Shown piece after piece: positions 9,586 through 48,310 of a DNA stretch of 64,000 nucleotides; position 1 is the first letter of the stretch, and every line of letters starts with the position of its first letter. Where the stretch lies: positions 372,001 through 436,000 of the forward strand of contig JBPGPT010000005.1 in NCBI GenBank assembly GCA_051047955.1. Reading direction: 5' to 3'. Below the pieces are notes generated by a model that had not been told where the DNA came from, made no database searches, and saw only the letters and a program-made list of their open reading frames with translations. Made by a program: the position numbers and the translations under genes. The stretch comes from Cystobasidiomycetes sp. EMM_F5 (lineage: Eukaryota).

Positions 9586-12500
9586 ATGTCGGGCGCTGGC
9601 AGCATGTATGAGGTCTCGCTGCGTACGCTGGTGCTGGGGGAGATTACGCAGGTGACTTCGCTTATGCGCAAGAATGCGCGATGGGCTGGCCAGCAGCAGC
9701 GACACCATGGCAGCAACGGCGGCAGCAATTCCAGTCGAGCTGGCACGCCAAATCCCAATGCCGCTGGACCTTCCACTTCGTCATCCATGGCTGCATCGTC
9801 TTCATCGTCTTCGTCGTCCTTGGCGTCGTCCTCGACTTCTACCGTGCGAGCATCCACGGTCAATTCAAGCTTGATTAGCAATTCAAGTGCAGCGACCCTA
9901 GTACCGCCGGAGAGTGGAAGTATTGGCAGTAATGGAGAAGCCTTCAGCCATCTGGGCTTGCGCGCGCAAAAGAGCAGAGAGCGAATCAATAAAGCCAGCT
10001 CCTCCAACAACGTGGCACACAATACGCAACCTCCGTCTGGCAAGGACGCTCTCGGTAGTGCCGGACTCAGGTCTACATCAATGAATAGTCAGCTGCCCGT
10101 TCCTGGAGATCTGCTGTCCGGATTCGCTATTCTGCGCGACGAGCTGAAAACAATAGAAGGTACGTTGGCCAGACACGATCGCCTACATCTGTCTCAGCGT
10201 CTCCTAATATGCATTGTCTTGATATGTAAGATCCCCGACAGCTAGACGCAATTATCCTTCTTTCCCCCTTCCTGGACGTTGTCCGGTCTGGCGATACCTC
10301 CGGTCCAATAACAGCCATTGCACTATCTTCAGTCGACAAATTTATCACATACGGTCTTGTGCATCGCGACTCGCCGAACCTTGCAGCTGCAATGACGGCA
10401 GTGGCAGGTGCCGGCACTCACTGCAAATTCGAAGCGTCAGATTCGGTGTCGGACGAAGTTGTGCTCCTCAAAATCCTCAATCTTCTCAAAAATACTCTGA
10501 CTAGCGATCTTGGTAATGTCCTGTCGGACGAAGCAGTCTGCGAAATGATGGAGACCGGGTTGAGCATGTGCTGTCAAATGCGGCTGAGCGGTAAGCGCTT
10601 ACCGTTGTGGTGCGAGCGCGTCGATACTGTAATCCCTGACAAGTATGTACCGCAGAAATGTTGAGACGGTCGTCTGAACGAAACATGCAAGCAATGCTCA
10701 TTTCAGTGTTCCGTCGGATACACAGCATACCTTCCCCACCTTCATCGAGTGAGAACTCTGCCTTGACAGCCTTTGCAGAAAGTCAGAGCGGTGCCTCAAC
10801 GCCTAGTATTACTGGAGCCGAAGACCAAAGTATACGAATGACGGCACCGGACCCGACTTCTGCCGATATCCCAGCAGCCTCTACGCCAGCCTACGAGCAT
10901 CCGATCACACCGAGTCGGAGGACGAGCTCTTACGGGCTCCCTCAACCGCCAAAAGAGATTGTGTCTGTGCCGACATCTCCTCCATTAGGCACAATCGACG
11001 AAGGTAAGCTGAAGAGGAAGCTATATAGTCATTGACTTACGCTGGCACACTTCCCCCCAGACATGGCACTACCTGAAGTAAAGCCTTATGGTCTAGCCTC
11101 AATCAGAGAAATTCTTCGCGTCCTCATTTCCTTGCTCAATCCTCACGATCAAACGCACACAGATTCAATGCGTCTGGTAGCGCTCGGGCTACTTAACATT
11201 GCCTTCGAGGTCGGAGGCGCAAGCATAAGCCGATTCCCATCGCTGCGAACAATGATTGCGGATGAGCTGTGCAAGTATCTCTTCCAACTTGCCAGGTCGG
11301 AAAGCGTTCTTCTGCTTGCCAATTCTCTCCGCGTGATATCGAATGTTTTTGATACAATGCGAGAGCACCTCAAGTTGCAGCAGGAACTCTTCTTGTCCTT
11401 CTTGATGGATCGCTTGATCAAACCTTCAGGAAATATGGGCACTGCCGCTCGCAAGGGCGAAATGGAATCCGAACTAGATGCTTCCACTTGGAATTCTGAC
11501 GAGACTTCACCAATGATCGTCAAGGGCGTACACTCTCCACTAATGACTAGCACGAACAGACGTGGCTCAGGATCACTTGCAGGGAATGCGTATGGAAGCA
11601 GGCAAGCCCACTCGGTAATGGTTCAGCAGAGCGAAAGTCGGGATCTTATGCTAGAGTATCTGGCACAATTCGCCACGGCAGACGACTTTATGACGAATCT
11701 GTGGACAAATTATGATTGCAATGTGGATTGTGAAGACCTATTTGAACGCATCATCAAGTTTTTCAGCAGAGTGAGCATTGCACGCATTGTTTGGCGGACG
11801 TTACGGTACTAATGATGCCTTTGAAGGGTGTCTATCCGTCCGGTTCTACATCCCCAAATTTGCAAGACCATTCGCAATTGGTCTGCCTAGACACCCTCCT
11901 TACTTTCGTTAATTCGATGACGACGCGTTTGAACGAGGCTGGACAGAGTATACCCCTTCCACAAGAAATCGATCCGGCTGCCTTAGCAGCTGCAAAAGCT
12001 AGCAAGCGGAATTTACTGGAAGGCGCCCTGCGTTTCAATGAGAAGCCGAAGGACGGAATCTCGTTCCTGGAGGCGAAAGGTCTCATTTACACTGAGGAGA
12101 ACGCCGATTTACCTAGGCACGAAGTACTGGCTAGATTCTTGAAGAATTGCCCACGCTTAGACAAGAAACTGCTTGGCGATTACATCTCGCGGCCCGACAA
12201 TATCGCTGTTCTCAAATCGTTTATCGGTCTTTTCGACTTTCGGGACAAGGTCATGTCGGATGCAATGCGAGAGCTTCTCGAGGCATTCCGATTGCCTGGT
12301 GAAGCCCAGCAAATCGACCGCATCACCGAGACGTTTGCGCATGCGTATGTTGAAGTCAATAAGAACGAGGTCAGGACATCAGATGCAGCATACGTACTGG
12401 CATTCTCCATCATTATGCTCAATACGGATCTTCATAGTCCGGTCATTCGTAAACGCATGACACTGGAAGATTATAGCAGAAACTTGAAAGGCGTCAACGA

Positions 12501-15245
12501 TAAGGAGGACTTTCCGCAAGAATATCTGGTGCGTCTTCCCATACAACTCCTTTGCAATCGTGCTAAACATTTCCTAACAACACAGAAAGCAGTATACGAT
12601 GGCATTCGGAAGCGCGAAATGGTCATGCCAGAAGAGCATGTCGGTATACTGGGCTTTGAGTACGCTTGGAAAGAATTGCTCCGGAGAGCATCTACCGCTG
12701 GACGATATCTGGTCTGCCATACAGATCACTTTGACAAATCCGTATTTACACTTTCCTGGAAGCCAGTCATATCAGCCTTGTCATATGCGTTCACCCATTT
12801 CACCGACGATTTCATGCTGCAACGAGCTATAGCAGGTTTCCAACAGTGCGCTACTCTGGCTCACCGCTTCGGTCTACCCGAAGTGTTCGATTACATTATA
12901 CACTCTCTGTCAAAGATCACCACGCTTGCAGGCCCGCAAGGCACTTTGGAATCCTCCACAACGTTTCCGACGATTGATATTGACGGGCAGACCGTCACCG
13001 TGTCCGCACTGGCTCTCCGCTTCGGGACAAGCTTCAAGGCTCAGCTGGCGGCCGTCGTCTTATTCTCTATTGCCAACGACAATGCATCCAGTATCGAACA
13101 AAGCTGGATTGATGTGCGGACTATCATGAAGTGCGATTTTTGAGCGGCTTAACTGATTAGAGGCATGGTCTTGCAGATCTTCGAAGTATATCACACCCTT
13201 TTCGCACATTCTTTGCTGCCTCAATCGCTGTTGAACATGGAAGAATTCCTAGCAGGAACGCCGGCCATACCTCTCAAGGTCCGCGTAGAAACTCCAGCGC
13301 CGGAAGAGAAAAGGCGGAACGACGGGGGACTACTGTCTACGCTCTCATCCTATCTTTTGTCGCCATATGCTCACACTCCCGACGGCATCGGTCGCGATGT
13401 CACTGAAGACGACATCGAACATACGCTCAGTACGATCGATTGCATCGCGTCATGTCGGGTTGACACATTATACAGTACCATCATGTGAGCTGCTCACATC
13501 AAATCCGGAAAGAAAGACTGACGCACAATATAGTTCTCTCCCGGCTGATGCCCTCGGAGTTGCCGTGATGGGTCTCGTTGACCTCAACGAGCGGGCTACA
13601 TTAGTCAAAATTCGCGAACGCACTTACAACGCCGTATCGTCCAGTCCTTCCATTTCCATCAATAAGACACAGCTTGATTACGATCCGTCCAGCGTCTTCA
13701 TGCTGGAGTTGATGATGAGTATAGCTGCGGAGGCAGAACACGCGGTTCCTGAGACTTGGTACGTAATCAGTAGTAAGGCTATGAAGGATGTTGGCTGATG
13801 CCTCTGAAGGCCCGTAATCTTCGATTTCGTCAGCAAAGTCTTGGCGTCTTGCCAATCCTTCCACACTATCTACTTGGAGCGCGTAGTGACCGGTCTACTG
13901 CGTATGACATCTTTGATCGCCCGTCGCGAAAGCATGAGGGATCAAGTTTTCGTCGCTTTGAATGTCCTGCATACATTACCCAGCCATGTGATGACAGCGC
14001 TCTCAGAACAAGTCGCTGTCGGCTTATCGCGCGTGTTGATGGAGAACCCTACTGGCATAAAGTCTGCCACGGAATGGAATCTGGTCTTCTCCTTGTGGTC
14101 TTCAACCGCTTCGAAGGAGGAAGCAGCAGCTGTTTCTTTCGACATGATAAGCAGTCTCTCTTCAGGAAACCTGGGAAGTGGACTAAACGCCGATAATTTC
14201 GTCGGCTTCATTCGCGTTCTCAACGACTTCGCGACGACGGCTAGTAGTGGCGATCTCAAATATAGGAATAGCGCTTCAGGTGCAGGCGATCCCGTCGTCG
14301 CGCGAGGCAGACAAGCATTAGAAATGATCCGAGATGCGCAATCGCTGGTTAACGAGCTCATCCAGAAGTCCAGTCTGAATGCTGCCGCCGGTCGGTTTTT
14401 CTACTCACCCGAGTTAATTGTGCTGATTCATCCTTTTCAGCCTGGGAAACATACTGGCTCCCAGTGCTGACGGTATACTCGCAGCAAAGCGTAAATGGAT
14501 GTCGTGAGATTCGCCAGACGGCACTCGCGAATCTTCAGCGCACTTTGATCGCCAATGAGGTCCTTTCGAATGCGGAAGTAGACTTGATCATGGTCTTCGA
14601 GCGTCTCATCTTTCCAATGCTGGATGAGCTGCTAAAACCTCAGGTGTTCCGGCGGGATCCCGAAGGCATGGGTGAAACTAGGTTGAGGGCTTCTGCTCTG
14701 CTTTGTAAAATCTTCCTGCATTATTTGATACAGCTATCCGAAAGACAAGGCATGGCAGGCATGACTGAACTATGGATGAAAATCTTGGGATACCTGGATC
14801 GATTCATGCACAGCGGGCGTCGCGACCACATGGTAAGACAAAGTTTCCATATGGTCGGTCTTCAGTTCACTGAGCCAAAATTGCAGTACGAAGCAGTGCC
14901 GGAATCCCTCAAGAATGTCCTGCTGGTCATGCACGCCTCCGGCTTTCTTGTGCCGCCACATCAGACGCCAAGGACTGACGTTCAAGCCAACTTGTGGGAC
15001 GCAACCTTCGACCGACTAGACATATTCCTACCTATATTGCGACAGGACCTTTTCCCCACTCCTGTCGGTAAGCACCTCAAATACCACGCAATGATGTCAA
15101 ATTCCTAATTAAATGCTTAGCAACACGATCAAGCCAACTGGCCTTACAGCCAGCTCCAGTGAGGAGTCCTTCCCCGACTCCGCCGTCATCTAGCCAGGAC
15201 TCGGACTCTGTGCCAAATCAAGCCTTCTCATCGCTGTATCTGTAG
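9586..15245 (+). CDS. GEA2: Sec7-domain ARF guanine-nucleotide exchange factor (Gea1/Gea2/GBF1 type)
   Basis: Sec7 motifs FNEKPKDGISFL, FRLPGEAQQIDRITETFA, AYVLAFSIIMLNTDLH; DCB/HUS motifs (THCKFEASD, LWTNYDCNVDC); about 10 introns; last exon ends ...FSSLYL* at 15245. Confidence 0.92.
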
Positions 15246-15396: not shown

Positions 15397-18300
15397 TCAC
15401 AATCCGGCAGCGTAATGCAACGCATACGCAGGCTGTGCAACGTTGTTGCCGTAGGGCACGTTTTGATGGTGCGGCGCAGGTTCCGAAGGCATTGATGCAG
15501 GAGAGGGATAGTCGTATTTGTATTGGTTCGGGGTAGGACCGGCAGAATCAGTAGTATAGTACTGCCGCTGTGAATCGTTAGAGGAAGGGTTTTGCTGCAT
15601 GTGCATGTTATGCGTTTGCTGCGGATAGTGTGGCTGCTGAGGCCCGGATGCATGGATCTGGCTGACAGCCTTTGGCGGTATAGCAGGTTTAGCAATCTGC
15701 TGTTGCGCCTGTCCGGAGCGAGCTCGTTCCATGGGATTGTTCCTAGGCTTAGCGGGTGCAGCTTGACGCGACTCCGCCACCAAGTCCTCTGGCCAGACAA
15801 TGGCAGCATATTTGCACAAGGCGCGATTACCATCACCGAATTGGACTTCGACTTCGCCGTGAGCCGCTCTGTTTGCGACCAAAGTCACTGCCCAAACGCC
15901 AGTCGAGGCACGGATTTGAATAGGAGATCCAGATTGGAGTCTCGCAATTCGGTCAGCCAAATCTTGCCTCTTCTTTTCAGCCAAAGCTCGCTGCCAGACG
16001 GGGTTGTGTTGACGGCATGTGACCGCTAGCTGTAGAGTGCCCTCGCCTAATGGAGCGTCTCCTGGTAGCATAGGCTCCAGTACACTGCGGCCATTGACAA
16101 GTGCATCGAGAACGACACCGCTACCATCCTTCAATGCGCAAGTGGCGTGGAAGGCCCTAACGCATTTAGCCGACTTGGTACATTGGATCTGGGGATTAAT
16201 CTTGTTAGCATGTGCGTGCTTGCCTAAACTGGTATAGCCGCAACTCACCTTCGTGCCATGCTTATCATCACAAAGGCCGCATTTCAAGCCCCATCGAGCA
16301 GACTCGATTTGGTCGAATCCGTAAACCATCTCGATACCGGTTGCTGGGTCTTGCGCACACCACGTCGTGGGAGTGAACGTAACGCATACTTTGTGAGCCA
16401 TCAAGCTTCGATTTTTGGCCTTTTCAGAATAGATTCGCACGAGGCCGTCTGACGACTCTTCTGGACATAGTGCGCAAGGGTGAGGCCGTGGTGCTGGCTT
16501 CAAGCTGGTGTGAGATGAAGCCATAGACGCAGCAGGCGAAGCCTTCGCGCCCGCCACAGAACGCACTGCTTTGTTCGCAGAATGACCATTTCCTGCCCTG
16601 CCTGCAGAAGCAGGCGTGCTAGTCTGACTGTTCGTTTGGGGACGAGCAGGCTTCCTTTCGTGTTCACTGGCAGTCGCTCTCGGCTGCATGCGTGGCTGAT
16701 TGACCACAGGCTGCGGTGGTCTGTAAGCAGGGCCGAGAATCCGCCGCTTTTTGGCCTCATGTTGAGGGATGATGACAGCAGCGTCCCGTTCTTGCTTTCT
16801 CCGTTCCGCATACTCTGGGTCTTTGCGTATGCGCTCAGCGTCTTGTCGGGCTTCGTCCAGCCAATGATCGACGTTGATCCTGACCGTATCAGGAAAGCAC
16901 ACACACGCTTTTGTTCGTCGACCAATGTCGAGCCAGCCTTCGGTTGCAAAGTTGATACTCTCGGCACAATTGAAGCCCAAATTGAAGCCGGAGTGATATC
17001 CATAAGGATAAGTCAATATGATCTCGCCTGGGAACTGCACGCATCGATTTAGGGGTATGCCTCCATCATGCAGATTTGTGGGTGAGACGAGAAATTGCTT
17101 GTGTCGCATAAACTCGGGGCACTTCTGCTGATCATGAGGGAAATAGCTCGCCATCAAACGCTCGAATCTTTCGGCAGAGGTTTGTGGGATGCTGTACCAG
17201 AATTTGGGACCACCAAAGTGGATGTAATTAATCGAGTAGAGATCTGCATCCTCGACGTGCCAGGCGACTAACAAGACGGAAGTTAGTGCAGCAATGCATA
17301 TTTCGTGGAATTTATACGCACATGTTGCTCTCCACATGCCAAAGTAGAGATAAGGGGTGTTGACGCCCGGCATCGGCATGTGCGGGTTGATGCGCATAAG
17401 GAGATCATCCAAACAGGCCACATTCCAGTCCTTTACGCTTTCGTCGAATAGAGATCCAGACCCGTCCGCGCCGTACATTGGTGGTGCGCCCAGCGAGAAC
17501 CGCTTCCAGTACTGCCGCTCAATCTTCTTACACTCGTCTAAGGTATAGTCTTCAAGTTTTGCACCGTTGGGCAGAGCTTCGTAATCAAAGGTAGCCCATT
17601 CCTTGTCCCACTCTTCTCCAAGCTCCTCCTGGCGAAGCTGACGAGACCGCTTCTTGCCGGACTTTGTCACAGAAGCCGTTCCGGTTTCAGATGGTGCAGG
17701 CGCTTCCGACGAGTCGCGCGCGACTGGGTCGTGCCGTGCGGGTGTGGCCATCGTGGCTTGTACATTCTCTTTTCCGCTGTCGTGAGATGCAGCAGGTGAT
17801 GGTGGCGCCCCCAGCGCAGGTTCGGTGTTTTCCTCTTTTACTGTGAGCTGAGGATCGGTGTTTGCAACTTCGACGGCTACATCATTCAGCTTCTTCTCCC
17901 AGTTGTCGTGCTCTTCCGGATTTTGTAGAGTGTCCATGTCAACATCCGCGTTACCCATACTTTCTGATAGCGGTGTTTTGGATGGCTCCGGAAGCTGTTC
18001 GTCATTCTCTTCCTCCTTCTCCTTCTTCTTTTGCTTTGCTGGTCTTCCCCGTGGTCTTTTTGCGGGCGGGGGCCCATCTGCAGGAACTGCACCACCTCTC
18101 GTTGAACGTCGTGGTGCAGATGCGATCCTCTCCGTTCCGTCTCCTCCTTGGCTGGCTCTGCTTCTGGCGTTGAAAAAGTCTGGCGTAGCATACTTGTCCG
18201 TCTCGCACATCTCCTTCCACTGCTTGATGTTGTAGATGCGACGAGAGGCGACGTTGCTCTGACGGAATATACCCCTGCTTCCCATAAAGTGCTGTTCTAT

Positions 18301-19310
18301 AGGCTCACGGATGCTCGTATCTTTGAGCGGCTGAGACACGGATTTGAGTGTGGCAAACCTGTCATGACATTCTCAGAGTCAGAAGGATGATTTGCAACGA
18401 CAAAAGTTGTAAATTAGTCTCACCACTCCTTTGGCGGAACGACCTTGACTATACCGCTACGCATTCCGTAATTGTCAATCTTTGCGATGAAGCTGTTGAA
18501 GTCTCTGAAATCTTCGTACGACGGCTCAAACACGGGTACCCCGCGAGTCGCGTTGCTTTCGGTCGGATAATAGTAGCTTGGTTTGATCTTGCCATCGGTC
18601 GCAGTTTTGCGATAGCTCGACAGACGACGAGGACCATCGTAGCCTGCTGGGAGTGCAGTCTCGCCGGGCGCGAGCCCTGGCGTTCCCCAATCATCTTCGT
18701 CTTCGTCGTCTTCGTCACTGAGGTCATCCATGCCCTCGCGCACTGGCAGATGGATCCTGCGAACGCGCTCTCTTGCCTGATAAGGCTTTGTAGTTGGCTC
18801 TACCCATTCCTCGCCGTCGTTCTCGGCTGCCTGTTCTTGCTTTGGCTCGTCCACCGATACCTGCGCGACTGAAACTGGAGCTACAGGAGCAGGATTTGGG
18901 TGTGCAGCCGGCAGGGGAGGTAACGGTGGCAGGGCTGTTGGCGGCTTTGGCTGTTCTGGCTGCCATTGTTGGTGTTGCTGTCGCTGTTGCTGCTGCTGCT
19001 GACTCCAAACTAAATGCTGCTCGTGGGCTGGATTTCGCTGCTTCGGACCACCGCAGGCGTACGGGATGTATGCTTCCGGCGGGGGCACAAATGATGGCGC
19101 AGTCTGATACGCAGACTGCTGTTGCTGGTGCTGGTGCTGCAAAGGCTGGACTGGCGGAAGCGGCGGCAGGGCAGCGGAGGGCGACTGCATCGAACTGCCC
19201 GCGCTGACTGGGCCAGACGGTGCTGCTGGGTGGGCTGCGAGCTGCGGAGCGTACGCAGAGTACACAGACGGGTACGCAGTCCGCGAATCGCTCATCGTGT
19301 CCTCCAACAT
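15397..19310 (-). CDS. JmjN/JmjC histone demethylase (KDM4/Rph1 family) with a PHD-like zinc finger
   Basis: JmjN VPVFEPSYEDFRDF...SGIVKVVPPKEW; JmjC GVNTPYLYFGMWRAT|FAWHVEDADLYSINY, GYHSGFNLGFNCAESINFA; CALC..AHKVC..C..C..QC..C..FHATC finger. Confidence 0.92.
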
Positions 19311-43028: not shown

Positions 43029-43178
43029 TTGCGGAGATCGGCTGAACAAGCTCTCGACTATCGTAAACGCAATAAGATGCAAAGGGAGCGCAGGTTTGCT
43101 CGAATCCAGAGCCTTGTGCCGGTTGCAACACGGCTAAGGGAAGCCGAAGTTGGCAGGACCTCTGTGTGGGTTCGACCC

Positions 43179-43183
43179 AAAAA
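43179..43183 (-). terminator. Putative Pol III terminator (T5) downstream of the tRNA
   Basis: TTTTT on the minus strand 13 nt after the discriminator base. Confidence 0.55.
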
Positions 43184-43196
43184 GAATAGAATGCAA

Positions 43197-43321
43197 CGAT
43201 CAAGAAGGGACTCGAACCCTCAATCTTCCCCTTAGGAGGGGGATGCCGTAACCATTTGGCCACTCGCTACTTTAATCATTAGAATGAACGTAAATCGCGA
43301 AACTCGGCCCGCACTCACACC
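43197..43321 (-). tRNA. tRNA-Arg(CCT), split into exon 1 (43319-43321, GGT) and exon 2 (43197-43266) by a spliceosomal-type intron
   Basis: Spliced 73-nt sequence GGTCGAG TG GCCAAATGGTTACGGC A TCCCC CTCCTAA GGGGA AGATT GAGGG TTCGAGT CCCTT CTTGATC G folds into a standard cloverleaf. The tRNA body itself is unambiguous; the 5' exon assignment is inferred from stem pairing. Confidence 0.85.
43267..43318 (-). other. 52-nt GT-AG spliceosomal-type intron in the tRNA acceptor stem
   Basis: GTGAGTGCGGGCCGAGTTTCGCGATTTACGTTCATTCTAATGATTAAAGTAG: GTGAGT donor, CTAAT branch site about 12 nt from the TAG acceptor, length like this window's mRNA introns. Confidence 0.75.
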
Positions 43322-43368
43322 ATCGGCTGCACTCTGGGAAGCAAGCGAGTGATCGAGATTATTTAGCC

Positions 43369-43377
43369 ATATATTTA
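43369..43377 (-). promoter_or_regulatory. TATA-like element upstream of tRNA exon 1
   Basis: TAAATATAT about 50 nt upstream of tRNA nucleotide 1. Confidence 0.4.
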
Positions 43378-43781
43378 CGTCTCTTAACTTTTCCTTCACA
43401 ATGCGAATCCAGCATCTCGTTAGTTGGGCGCCTTTCGGGCCCTACCGAGGCAGCAAAGGCATCAAATTGCCGGTGTAGTCTATTCCTGTACCTCGCGACC
43501 GTCAGCACATACTTTTAAATAGGTCTGCGGTTTTTAGCAATTTTTATTTATCAGATTGATTACATTGGTCTATGATACGTCGGATGTAGGATGGGAAGGA
43601 GGAAGCGACTGGTGGCCGGGGCTCTTCGTGTGAATTAATCGAAATGTATATTGCGAGTCAGAAAGAAATTGATATTTGAATATACATGTTGCATCAGCCA
43701 GATCCTTTGATGGCACAGCGAGCAGAAGATGATTGCGTGAAAGCGTTAAGATGTCATACACGCAGGCGCAGTACTGTTTGC

Positions 43782-45593
43782 TTATGTACTATTGCGATCA
43801 TTCGAGGTCGAAGTGGCTGGACTCGGACACTCGGATTTTCTATTGCAATCATTGGAAGTTGTTGGGATAGCTGAATCTTGGCAGAAGTCTGGTTCCTTTT
43901 GCTAATTAAAGAACAGGACATCGTCTTCAGCGATCTGTGATGCATAGCTTCCTTAAATCGGACACACCATGTAGATCCAAGTTAAGGGTGCCATGATGAG
44001 CGAGATCGCAGCTGTGATGCCAATTTGTATTCTGAAGCCGTTCGGGATCCCATATGTGTCTAGAATCTGTCCAGCCACGATGGGACCGATGAATGCAGCA
44101 AGAGAAAAGGTGAGGTTGAATCCACCGTACGCATAAGAAGTTCCACAGACGCCGTTTGATGTGCTGGAAACATGGGCTAGCCAGACCATTACGGGCTGTC
44201 TCCTTTGGATCAGCATACTTAGGATATCTAAATATCTTAACATACCGAATTTATGAGGCCAGAGCAAAGACCACAAAGCACGAGCAGAGCGATGAAAGCC
44301 GGCAGCGGCAGCTGCTCGATCATCAAAGAGCAGAGTGCCGGGATGAAGCCAGCACAACAGAGGGTGGACAGTATTCGGCATCCAAAGCGATCCGTGAGCC
44401 AGCCCTGTGCGGAACCCGTGTTAGCGGTATGCATGACAGATACTGTGAATTAGAGGGGCTCACAGCAGCAGGCGAGATGATACTAGAAGGAATGGCAACG
44501 GCGAAGTAGGCAAGACCAGCACCCTCCGCGTCTAATCCGTATCGCTGACTGAGTCGTAAGACTAGTGCGGTATTGTAAATACCTGGCAGACTCGGACGTC
44601 AGTCTAGTTCTTCGAGCTGGAGAGCGAGCGTGCTAGCCTAAACGAACCTGAAAAGATGAGTCCGTTCAAGAACGAAACCATCAAAGGAACAAGAGCTCGG
44701 AGATCGAATAAAAGAAATTTTATAGCAGCTGTGGTGTTGTGCTGGAGCTTATCTGAGGCGGGATCCGTGGGAGCTGTGTCGACGGTCTTTAGGTCGTCAT
44801 CCATCTCTCCCGCAGCTGTACTGGTCGCAGGCGCCCATTTTGCAATCTCGTGCTTTTCTACAACCAAGATCCGAAGTATCAAGTCGAGACCAACTGCAAA
44901 GATATCAGCAAAAACACACGTGAGCCCCGGCAGAACGGCGTACCTAAAGCCAATGCGAAAATGGCGGGCGCGTTCCAACCTAGACGCGTATACAGTACCC
45001 CACCTACGGGCTGTCCTACAGCGGTTCCGAAGGAATCTCCAATCATGGCTATGCCCATGCACTTCCCCAGCATTGTAGAGGGGCAATTATCCGCGACTAC
45101 GATGGTTGCAAGTATTAGCTATACTGGATGATGTAAGTCAGGTGGACAGTGATTGTGGCCTACCCAGAGCCAGGCCTATTGTCCAAATACCGGCGCCGCT
45201 AGCGCCTTGAAGTACTCTCGCACTCACCATGCCCGCATAATTCGGAGCAAACAGAAAGAAGAGGATACTGAGGGCCATCAAGACCAGCGCTCCTAGCAGG
45301 AGATTCCGTTTTCCTCTGTACCTGCTCCCCAGCCAGGCGAATGGAAAGGTCGCGACAACCAAGCCTCCTGCATATGCTGCCGCAAGCCAGCCTGTTAGGG
45401 AAGGTATATTTTGAAAGCCGAGCGCTTCAAGCCGGAAGGGAATAGCTGGCGTGAAGAGAGGATATAGACAAACGTCTGTGAAAAGGCCCATCCCGGTAAC
45501 GAGCGTGATGTAGTAAACGGAAGATCTCAACTTTAGCAGAAGCGGCATATTCATTGCTGTTGTAACGTCATCAGATCCGTTTCGTCGAAACAT
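43782..45593 (-). CDS. MFS transporter (vesicular amine transporter/SLC18-like), copy A
   Basis: GLFTDVCLYPLFTPAIPFRLE, ARVLQGASGAGIWTIGLAL|VADN, G..MGIAM, GWLTDRFG, YGGFNLTFSLAAFIGPIVAG. Confidence 0.88.
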
Positions 45594-46558
45594 AATTGGA
45601 AAAGTTTAGTGTGAAGCAACCGCAGCCTGGCGTCAGCTTGACCGAAAGGTATCGTATTGATATAGCACGATGCGAGGCCAGCACTTATAAAAAAACCGGC
45701 GTAACCCCGGCAGATTGCAGGGTTCTCTTGACCTGGAATGCACCCGGCTATTGACGAGGGAGATGTCTCGAGGAATCCACCCGTGCTCGACACTTAATTA
45801 AACGACAGAGGCTGTGCTGGAACATCATTGCTTATATCAAACTGACAGGTTTCGTAAGTGCCGGTACGAAAGCGACCGCGTACGGTATATCGCCGATCAA
45901 ATATCGTTCTAACATCTTTTGCCGATATAGGCGCGTTGTAACAACATCGTAACGTGTTCACGTAAGTTGAGTATGGTGTGACTTGCGACCTGCACAAACT
46001 CTGCAAGAAACCCGCTTCTATAGCTAGAGAGACCTGCTTGTCTTTCGAATGCACGAAGCCTATTCTGGTTCGGCGAGTCTACGAGACCGTAGCGACCCAC
46101 TCCAGTAGGCGTAAGAGGTTCTCCACGGTATTACCTCCAAGTACCTGCGTTCCAAGCCTGCGTAATGCTCTAGGCGGAATGTTAGGTGAGGTGATGCATT
46201 TGCATTCAGTCTGCAATTGCGTTAATTTCGGCAGTATCCTACTTTTACGGTATTTTGCGGGTGTGTAGATTATGCAGATTGAGTGAACACTTGTGAAGCG
46301 GCGTCAAGTTGATCGAGCAATACAGTCGCGTTTCAATCGTCTTTATTCGGCATGATTTTGTCGACCTGCCCTCAAGAATGTGATGAAGTAACCTTCCCAG
46401 ACATGGCATGGGGCCATGATTGCTGCTACTGGATGCTCTACGTATATTTCATGAACTGCCTCCAGAGGCGGCGTTATAAGTTGGGATTGCCGAGCACGTT
46501 GTCGGGCGTTGCGGAGGGTATACGGAACGGCCGAGTGTACGGGATTCCAAGGCGAGTT

Positions 46559-48310
46559 CTATGTCATGTCCAGCGTAACTTCAGCCGCCTCTGGTTCTTT
46601 CCGCTGAATGAAACACGACATTGGTCAGCGTGTATACCGGGACCAACTGGAAATCTACCACGCACCATATAAATCCAAGTCAAGGGCGCCATGATCAGCG
46701 AAATCGCAGCTGTGATGCCAATTTGTATTTTGAAGCCGTTTGCGACACCGCACGTTTCGAGGATCTGTCCAGCTACGATGGGACCAACGAATGCAGCCAG
46801 AGAGAAGGTGAGGTTGAAACCGCCATATGCGTGAGAGGTTCCGCAGATACCATTAGATGTGCTGGAGACATGGGCTAGCCAGACCATAACGGGCTGTCTC
46901 AATGAGATCAGCATCGAAAGGCGTACATTTTCATGTCGAAGCGTACCGAATTTATTAGACCGGAGCACAGGCCACAAAGCACGAGCAGAGCGATAAAAGC
47001 AGGCAGAGGCAGCTGCTCGATCATCAGAAGGCACAATGCCGGAATAAAGCCAGCGCAGCAGAGGGTAGACAGTATTCGACATCCAAGGCGATCAGTAAGT
47101 CCACCCTGGCGGAGTCGAACGACTGCTTAGCAGTGCATTTGGAGGGTAGAATACATAATGCGCTCACAGCGACTGGCGAGATGATACTTGAAGGTATGGC
47201 AATAGCAAAGTATACGAGACCGGCGCCCTCCGAGTTTAGTCCGTACCGTTGATTGAGCCTTAAGACAAGCGCAGTATTGTATATCCCTGAATTGAGTGAC
47301 AAAAGAAGTCAGATCAGCAAACCCCCGTTATTGCGCGAATCGATTTACCGGAAAAGATGAACCCGTTCAAAAAAGACACCATCAGTGGGACTAGAGCGCG
47401 TAGGTTGAACATGAGGTATTTTATAGCAGCCAGAGAGTCGTAGTGTGGCTTATCTTTGACGGGCTCGGGTGGTGCGGTCTCGACAATTTTCATGTCTTCG
47501 CCCAACTCAGGTGATTGTCCAGCGCTAGTGGTCACAGCTTCATCGCCCCGCCAGTTTGCGACCTCGTGCTTTTCAATAACAAATACTCGGAGGAGGAAGT
47601 CAAAGCCAACTGAATGTATATCAGTGTAAGCCTTGAATCCTGCTCGGAAATAGCTAGCCCGCACCACACGCTAACGCAAAGATAGCTGGAGCATTCCAGC
47701 CCAGGCGAGAATACAGAACACCACCAAGAGGCTGTCCTATCGCGGCACCGAAGGAGTAGCCAATCATGGCCAAACCCATGCATTTTCCCAGTATTGCAGG
47801 AGGGCAATTGTCAGCAACTGCATCGGTCGGAGTTTTGTCAATTGTGCATACATCGTCACTGCGAGCGGAACCCGTCGTACCTAGTGCCAGTCCTAACGTC
47901 CAAATACCTGCACCGCTAGCACCTTGCAATATCCTTGCAATGACCATTCCAACATAATTGGAAACCAGGAGGAAGAGTATAATACCGACTGCCATAAGGA
48001 CCAAAGCTCCCAACAAGACGTTTCGTTTCCCCCTGTAATTGCTGCCCAGCCAAGCGAAAGGGAACGTCGCAATGACCAGACCTCCTGCATATGCCGCCGC
48101 GAGCCAGCCTGTCAGGGACGGTATGTTTTGGAAGCCGAGCGCTTCAAGGCGGAAGGGAATAGCTGGCGTGAAGAGAGGATATAGACAAACGTCCGTGAAA
48201 AGGCCCATCCCGGTGACCAGCGTGATGTAGTAAACGGAAGATCTGACGTTCAGAAGAAGCGGCTTTTTTGAGGGTATGGCTACTTTATCAGCTCTCTGTC
48301 CCCGGAACAT
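46559..48310 (-). CDS. MFS transporter (vesicular amine transporter/SLC18-like), copy B
   Basis: Close paralog of copy A with the same intron positions; alternative upstream ATG at 48322. Confidence 0.88.

Follow-up and report, generated by a model that had tools for sequence, protein, structure and literature searches.

A tRNA-Arg(CCT) gene with an incomplete acceptor stem

Can a nuclear transfer RNA (tRNA) gene depend on the spliceosome for its maturation? This question is raised by a tRNA-Arg(CCT) locus in 64,000 nucleotides (nt) of DNA from the fungus Cystobasidiomycetes sp. EMM_F5 (assembly GCA_051047955.1, contig JBPGPT010000005.1, positions 372,001 to 436,000). We refer to this whole 64-kb stretch as the window and number positions from its first letter. 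An earlier note on this DNA had proposed that the gene is interrupted in its acceptor stem by a spliceosomal intron. Judging from the anatomy of the locus, we see close to an even chance, falling just short of it, that this is a spliced, functional tRNA-Arg(CCU) gene, in which a GT-AG intron of the U2 type, 52 nt long, would separate positions 3 and 4. The feature lies on the minus strand, a point on which the note needed correction; its statements about the sequence hold on that strand.

We initially analyzed the body of the tRNA. ARAGORN found a single tRNA in the window, tRNA-Arg(cct) at 43197-43269 on the minus strand, and Rfam model RF00005 matched the identical 73 nt full-length (model positions 1-71) with 48.5 bits, compared to a gathering score of 29. 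When the whole 64 kb were searched permissively with Rfam, nothing besides this tRNA-Arg(CCT) was listed. Positions 4-73 (43197..43266, minus strand) comprise the rest of the acceptor strand, the D arm with the A box, the CCT anticodon arm, the variable loop, the T arm with the B box, the 3' acceptor strand CTTGATC and the discriminator G. As the earlier note had described, the D, anticodon and T arms are well formed in the Rfam alignment. The universal tRNA positions are also intact, and the anticodon loop is uninterrupted. With its cloverleaf, conserved arms and internal A and B boxes, the tRNA body is typical of a nuclear tRNA-Arg(CCU). The codon AGG accounts for 97 of the 674 arginine codons in the long open reading frames (ORFs) of the window.

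The acceptor stem is the exception. In the Rfam covariance-model alignment, nonstandard pairs are limited to 1:72, 3:70 and 13:22. The 5' strand TAGCGAG stands opposite CTTGATC, leaving U1-C72 and G3-A70 unpaired in the contiguous gene, which are the two mismatches noted previously. Neither the scattered damage nor the sub-threshold score of a pseudogene was found, the damage being limited to the first three nucleotides. By our own arithmetic, two random mismatches would both fall within the top three of the 21 stem pairs in about 1.4% of cases.

For a baseline, metagenomes were scanned with an anticodon-arm/T-arm pattern. The seven loci obtained all belong to unrelated eukaryotes or are bacterial-type and serve for this comparison only. 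Five complete eukaryote-type genes were retained; L002, cut by a contig end, and L004, which is bacterial-type and out of register at fixed offsets, were excluded. All five genes have contiguous acceptor stems with 7 of 7 pairs, and they score 65.7 to 68.7 bits with Rfam, so that the window gene lies 17 to 20 bits lower. The earlier expectation that standard finders would regard this locus as weak or pseudo was correct as to the reduced score, but it was overstated because both ARAGORN and Rfam call the tRNA well over threshold. An exact 34-mer of the tRNA matched 0 loci in genome contigs and 0 in viral contigs, and a search of the protein collection with a spurious 81-amino-acid ORF that overlaps the tRNA gave no candidate.

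In silico removal of a 52-nt intron-like insert restores the acceptor stem

Directly upstream of tRNA position 4, reading of the sequence revealed a candidate GT-AG spliceosomal intron of 52 nt (43267..43318, minus strand). It begins with the donor GTGAGT (43318-43313), carries the branch-like motif CTAAT at 43282-43278 (branch A at 43279, 12 nt from the 3' end) and ends with the acceptor TAG (43269-43267), which makes up nucleotides 1-3 of the contiguous tRNA call. On the minus strand the layout is ...GCAGCCGATGGT / GTGAGT...CTAAT...AAAGTAG / CGAGTGGCC..., in full agreement with the earlier description of these signals and of the insert length. GTGAGT, CTAAT and TAG conform to the U2-type signals GTNNGT/GTRAGT, CTRAY and YAG.

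The insert is preceded by GGT (43319..43321, minus strand), the 3-nt end of the putative 5' exon and proposed tRNA positions 1-3, as defined by pairing after the join. Joining GGT to position 4 produces GGTCGAG, which forms all seven acceptor pairs, two of them G-U: G1-C72, G2-U71, U3-A70, C4-G69, G5-U68, A6-U67 and G7-C66. This was confirmed by ARAGORN on the programmatic join, which gave the 73-nt tRNA anticipated in the note, with the seven-pair stem and an additional U(-1)-G73 pair. The calculated energy of the cloverleaf decreases from -20.0 to -23.8 kcal/mol after the in silico join. A contiguous 7-bp acceptor stem, absent from the gene as it stands, is found only once 43318-43267 is removed. 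Removal of the insert restores the structure of the host RNA, as is characteristic of mRNA-type introns in small noncoding RNA (ncRNA) genes.

A GAT triplet directly before GGT (43322-43324, minus strand) would likewise pair perfectly with positions 70-72. It offers no second splice solution because no GT donor follows it.

The combination of splice signals and repairing triplet is rare in the window

Pattern counts covered the two strands of the window, a total of 128,000 positions. A loose intron pattern (GTNNGT, YTNAY 6 to 30 nt from the end, YAG, length 45 to 80 nt) has 145 end positions, and only 3 of these also have a preceding G[AG]T triplet, one being the tRNA site. A strict pattern (GTRAGT, CTRAY, YAG) was found at 10 positions; with the G[AG]T triplet, only the tRNA site is left. 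At a single given position, such as the tRNA 3/4 boundary, about 1 to 2 occurrences in 100,000 are expected, and this does not yet include the requirement for a tRNA with its only serious defects in the triplet that is replaced. A chance origin of insert and repair is very unlikely, and the locus is most simply explained by a spliceosomal-type intron that would have inserted into a tRNA gene.

These counts bear on the possibility of coincidence, namely that a damaged or odd tRNA gene acquired an intron-like flank and GGT by chance. We regard this as improbable. The search upstream was free to find any fix, and CTAAT-like words arise easily in the AT-rich 5' flanks of tRNA genes, both of which make a coincidence easier. 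On the other hand, outside the tRNA site the loose pattern with a repairing triplet occurs at just 2 of the 128,000 positions and the strict one at 0. The acceptor would also have to coincide with position 3/4, and both mismatches lie exactly in the replaced triplet. A further argument comes from the flanking sequence, where an independent helix was found (P of 0.00075 to 0.005; see below).

The insert lies within the range of introns inferred in the window

We compared the insert with 31 introns that were inferred from ORF junctions in the window and then filtered, a heuristic procedure in which false calls are possible. Two looser ORF-junction screens, with 3990 and 970 candidates, were uninformative and were replaced by this set. 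The inferred introns are 45 to 87 nt long, with a median of 63 nt, and 3 of the 31 measure 52 nt or less. Their donors follow GTNNGT, including GTATGT (6), GTACGT (4), GTAGGT (3) and GTGAGT (3), the form seen in the candidate; the acceptors are CAG in 24 cases and TAG, as in the candidate, in 7. A strict CTRAY branch motif is present in 14 of the 31, at 13 to 28 nt from the 3' end. An additional AG between a loose branch site and the acceptor used occurs in 13 of the 31. In the adjacent alpha/beta-hydrolase gene, introns of 52, 51 and 53 nt were read by eye. The candidate is thus in range for its signals and its length, at the short end for length and for branch distance.

The earlier note had also stressed that the insert has no run of four T that would terminate RNA polymerase III (Pol III). 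Its longest T run is 3, as claimed, but this is of little weight as a Pol III argument because 27 of the 31 inferred introns have no such run either (it is present in 4).

The upstream leader can pair with the 3' trailer

Minimum free energy folds and a helix test indicated pairing between the two flanks of the gene. The leader segment AGAGTGCAGC (43326..43335, minus strand), at -14 to -5 relative to the proposed G1, has as its partner GTTGCATTCT (43188..43197, minus strand), which consists of the discriminator and the 3' trailer. Positions 43335-43326, 5 to 14 nt upstream of GGT, pair with 43197-43188 in 10 consecutive bp including 2 G-U, and both non-Watson-Crick positions are G-U in tRNA-sense RNA only. 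With the 14 nt before the terminator as the target of the test, a 10-bp helix has a P of 0.00075 among 20,000 shuffled leaders, and 93 of 18,278 30-mers of the window do as well. By comparison, a leader made up of the 30 nt that immediately precede the contiguous tRNA forms a helix of 5 bp at most. A first version of the test, which included the T-rich terminator, was far less specific (4.8% of window 30-mers) and was disregarded. Pairing of this kind is seen in ordinary genes too, the longest leader-trailer helices in the five baseline genes being 6, 11, 5, 7 and 5 bp. Because the pairing leader precedes the proposed exon, the arrangement is as expected for the insertion of 52 nt into a once contiguous gene.

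Two TATA-like elements, read from the sequence, lie farther upstream (43359..43377, minus strand): TAAATATAT at 43377-43369 and TAAATAA at 43365-43359, or 56 to 48 and 44 to 38 nt upstream of the proposed G1. Fungal Pol III genes have, as a rule, a TATA element at -30. It is possible that the two elements determine the start site of an exon-containing transcript. On the 3' side, a T5 run (43179..43183, minus strand), also read from the sequence, follows 14 nt after the discriminator; it has the form of an oligo-T Pol III terminator and is predicted to act as one.

Three short words were noted in these flanks. Just past the T5 run, at 43165-43175 on the plus strand, the 11-nt TGTGGGTTCGA is 91% complementary to the T arm of the tRNA and resembles a B-box/T-arm fragment facing it. 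Neither Rfam nor ARAGORN detected a second tRNA at 43165-43175, and the word might have remained from an opposed tRNA or be due to chance. At 43344-43351 (minus strand), 23 to 30 nt upstream of the proposed G1, CACTCGCT is a perfect 8-nt complement to tRNA positions 2-9 (AGCGAGTG); this may be chance or an alternative partner of the 5' acceptor strand in a long precursor. Finally, the leader sequence GAGTGCAGCCGATGGT (43321-43331, minus strand) aligns to tRNA positions 5-20, the A-box region, with a nonsignificant score of 11 (shuffle mean, 12.7). This word, weakly similar to an A box and close to the proposed start, constitutes no evidence by itself.

A proposed route of maturation and its difficulties

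According to our model, the precursor would begin upstream of 43321, transcribed either by Pol III positioned by the TATA-like elements or by RNA polymerase II (Pol II). Its leader would pair with the 3' trailer and so keep the tiny 5' exon beside the tRNA body. The spliceosome would then excise 43318-43267 and join ...GAUGGU to CGAGUGG..., with the predicted spliced junction running from ...CCGAUGGU to CGAGUGGCC.... Finally, RNase P would cleave before G1 and RNase Z after G73, and the addition of CCA would yield a tRNA of 73 nt in which all 7 bp of the acceptor stem are formed. We infer the transcription start, the polymerase, the splicing, the order of processing and the function. Taken as a whole, a first spliceosome-dependent tRNA, with a noncanonical upstream start, spliceosomal removal before RNase P and a helix that holds the exon, is a proposal that we make tentatively and to which we give somewhat less than an even chance.

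The principal difficulty, which the earlier note did not address, concerns the promoter. TFIIIC normally sets the Pol III start about 20 nt upstream of the A box. For the exon to be part of the transcript, initiation has to occur 62 nt or more upstream of this box (3 + 52 + 7). With the normal spacing, ordinary Pol III initiation would take place inside the insert and yield the mismatched tRNA. This leaves three possibilities: TFIIIB could be directed by the TATA-like elements alone, the precursor could be a Pol II product, or the locus could produce mainly a defective tRNA.

Together with this geometry, several other observations weigh against a spliced, functional gene. The branch distance of 12 nt is below all 14 distances of strict CTRAY motifs in the inferred introns. 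A competing AAG, which ends at 43270, lies 3 nt upstream of TAG, and its use would leave the stem unrepaired. The strict intron pattern shows no enrichment over Markov shuffles (11 occurrences in the window compared to 9.5 +/- 2.8), and for this reason the description of the insert as a textbook intron for this genome was too strong. The signals and the length are in range as that description implied, but GTGAGT is the donor of only 3 of the 31 inferred introns, their median length is 63 nt, and the candidate has the short branch distance. There is also multiple testing to consider, as the locus comes from a scan of very many windows. Lastly, no tRNA gene with a spliceosomal or mRNA-type intron came to light in the full-text library searched, and the earlier note likewise knew of no described spliceosome-dependent tRNA gene.

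Alternative explanations

The alternative that survives best is that of a dead or dying gene. Here an intron-like sequence of 52 nt would have been inserted into a once normal gene by intron transposition, by reverse splicing and reverse transcription, or by repair-mediated insertion; the result would be an unspliced young pseudogene, and AGG would be read by another tRNA-Arg. We consider this unlikely, though still a serious competitor. It accounts for the same anatomy as a spliced gene does, that is, for the GGT, an ancestral leader-trailer helix and the intron signals. It is also favored by the promoter geometry, which puts the Pol III start inside the insert, by the short distance from branch to acceptor, by the competing AAG, and by the Rfam score 17 to 20 bits below that of a normal tRNA-Arg(CCT). 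Against this, the universal tRNA positions, the other helices and all three splice signals are intact, and a neutral locus would hold such a state only briefly. Moreover, the 64 kb contain no second or source copy of the insert.

The coincidence considered above draws additional support from the multiple testing and from the chance-level number of strict patterns. Similarly improbable, in our view, is an overlapping Pol II transcript that owns the GT-AG element or its donor, for example, as an intron in the 5' untranslated region of the hydrolase gene. The tRNA would then be an independent Pol III gene, defective or tolerated, and the stem repair would be incidental. The hydrolase ATG is on the same strand just about 165 nt downstream of the tRNA, TATA-like elements lie upstream of the donor, and an ATG immediately precedes it (..CGATGGT/GTGAGT). 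However, the acceptor exactly at position 3/4 and the repairing triplet would be left unexplained (we estimate about 1/32 times about 1/100), and so would the leader-trailer helix. In addition, no ORF of at least 80 amino acids was found on the tRNA strand at 43340-43927.

Least probable, and very doubtful, is that the contiguous 73-nt tRNA is itself the product, its mismatches tolerated or its first three nucleotides replaced by template-dependent 3'-5' polymerization: the confinement of the mismatches to the first three pairs is a signature of 5' editing, and the A and B boxes and the T5 terminator are in normal arrangement, but the context is nuclear-like, with neighbors that carry spliceosomal introns, and this reading accounts neither for the intron signals nor for the GGT triplet or the leader helix.

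Other origins were considered and rejected. An intron of the bulge-helix-bulge (BHB) type, removed by the TSEN endonuclease, is excluded because no 4-bp helix is possible between the neighborhoods of the two splice sites (0 four-bp helices), and its position is 3/4 and not 37/38. The upstream GGT could also have come from a duplicated piece of the tRNA 5' end, but this was dismissed: the 76 nt upstream align to the tRNA with a local score of 11, and the mean of shuffles is 12.7 (P = 0.87). A nearby tandem duplication of a major facilitator superfamily (MFS) transporter gene does not include the locus, which lies outside the duplicated unit. No second copy of the tRNA or of the insert was found within the 64-kb window.

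The anatomy of the sequence, its repair in silico, the improbability of a chance origin and the lack of a BHB motif are established. As for the reading as a spliceosomal intron put forward in the earlier note, it is favored by the stem repair, the splice signals, the low chance expectation, the missing BHB structure, the leader helix and the Pucciniomycotina host; its argument from tRNA finders holds only in part, and that from Pol III termination is weak.

Comparison with known systems

The closest parallel to a spliceosomal intron in this tRNA gene is provided by the mRNA-type introns of small nuclear RNA (snRNA) genes. According to a review of U6 biology (PMC5855946), the single U6 gene of Schizosaccharomyces pombe, transcribed by Pol III, has a spliceosomal intron, and many fungal U6 genes carry up to four (citing Tani and Ohshima 1989/1991; Canzler 2016). 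The same review reports spliceosomal introns in the U6, U2, U1 and U5 snRNA genes of Rhodotorula hasegawae (Takahashi 1993/1996) and in ribosomal RNA (rRNA) genes, and describes what determines intron insertion into ncRNAs as unclear. In both situations, a short intron with canonical signals interrupts a small structured ncRNA gene, and its removal restores, or in our case is predicted to restore, a conserved RNA. The U6 case, as described there, further demonstrates the splicing of a Pol III transcript, and the snRNA cases include Pucciniomycotina yeasts, the subphylum of the present host. The differences are that the host RNA here is a tRNA, outside the spliceosome, and that the acceptor stem is split 3 nt from its 5' end, the 5' exon being mostly discarded leader. 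Because a tRNA is not part of the spliceosome, an origin by reverse splicing near the active site is not directly applicable. Also unlike the snRNA genes, the A box is downstream of the intron, in conflict with normal tRNA promoter geometry, and splicing is a prediction only.

Noncanonical BHB introns of tRNA genes include introns at position 3/4. They share with the candidate a location in the 5' acceptor strand, a leader that takes part in the precursor structure, and genes that standard finders mis-score. In contrast, the insert described here has no BHB; it has GT...AG and a branch motif, and its length equals that of local pre-mRNA introns. The reviews PMC4090602 and PMC3978253 place noncanonical BHB introns in Archaea (Thermoproteales, DPANN) and in Cyanidioschyzon merolae. 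Canonical eukaryotic tRNA introns are located at 37/38 and are removed by TSEN and tRNA ligase, according to the review PMC10275265. As with these, an intervening sequence of a nuclear tRNA gene would need removal here, but the position is 3/4 and the signals are of the spliceosome type. In the passages searched from four tRNA reviews (PMC10275265, PMC4090602, PMC3978253 and PMC12530127), the spliceosome either goes unmentioned or is presented as a system apart from tRNA splicing.

Restriction of the genomic mismatches to acceptor pairs 1-3 (here 1:72 and 3:70) is also what is seen with 5' editing. Thg1-like 5' editing acts on mitochondrial tRNAs of Acanthamoeba, Dictyostelium and chytrid fungi, and we know of no 5' editing of cytosolic tRNAs. 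Our locus differs in its nuclear-like setting and in the ready-made repairing triplet and splice signals upstream. The surroundings are nuclear-like, with intron-bearing protein genes, and the window contains a single tRNA.

Genomic context and host lineage

The tRNA gene is flanked by protein-coding genes of the same orientation. The end of an MFS transporter gene lies about 600 nt upstream of it, and the alpha/beta-hydrolase gene starts at about 43031, some 165 nt downstream. The MFS transporter is present as a tandem duplication, at 43927-45605 and 46564-48177 on the minus strand, whose period is about 2.7 kb and in which six repeat blocks show 70 to 84% identity. PF07690 matches the first copy, and the tRNA locus is just outside the unit. 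The baseline genes come from contigs (L001, L003, L005, L006 and L007) that are very dense tRNA arrays, perhaps of an alga or a giant virus of algae, with genes on both strands at a spacing of about 100 to 150 nt. In 6,054 bases of these arrays, Rfam gave 44 tRNA matches and one match to U2 snRNA.

To place the host, we compared two proteins encoded in the window with the protein collection. The best non-self match of a JmjC/PHD protein (15397-18372) is 55% identical; its best named relatives are from Microbotryum, Meredithblackwellia, Rhodotorula, Rhodosporidiobolus, Sporobolomyces, Mixia and rusts, at local identities of at most 59%. For a Sec7-domain protein (11746-13143), the best non-self match is 50% identical, and only distant basidiomycetes were matched. 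Judged from these proteins, the host is a deep-branching lineage of Pucciniomycotina, and a sparsely sampled one because neither protein has close relatives.

Implications

Two classes of introns are taught as separate: spliceosomal introns are assigned to Pol II transcripts and to a small number of snRNA and rRNA genes, and tRNAs have introns of the endonuclease-ligase class. If the gene described here proves functional, mRNA-type introns of small RNA genes would extend to tRNA. The prediction is directly testable, as it specifies one junction and one 5' end.

A tRNA that requires the spliceosome would break the division between the two intron classes and would couple tRNA supply to the machinery of pre-mRNA splicing. 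How a gene whose A box lies behind an intron comes to be transcribed would then need an explanation. Such a tRNA would also add a structured RNA outside the spliceosome to the examples of intron gain, and tRNA annotation pipelines may then be misreading functional genes as mismatched or low-scoring. For the Pucciniomycotina, the habit of carrying mRNA-type introns would extend from snRNAs to tRNAs.

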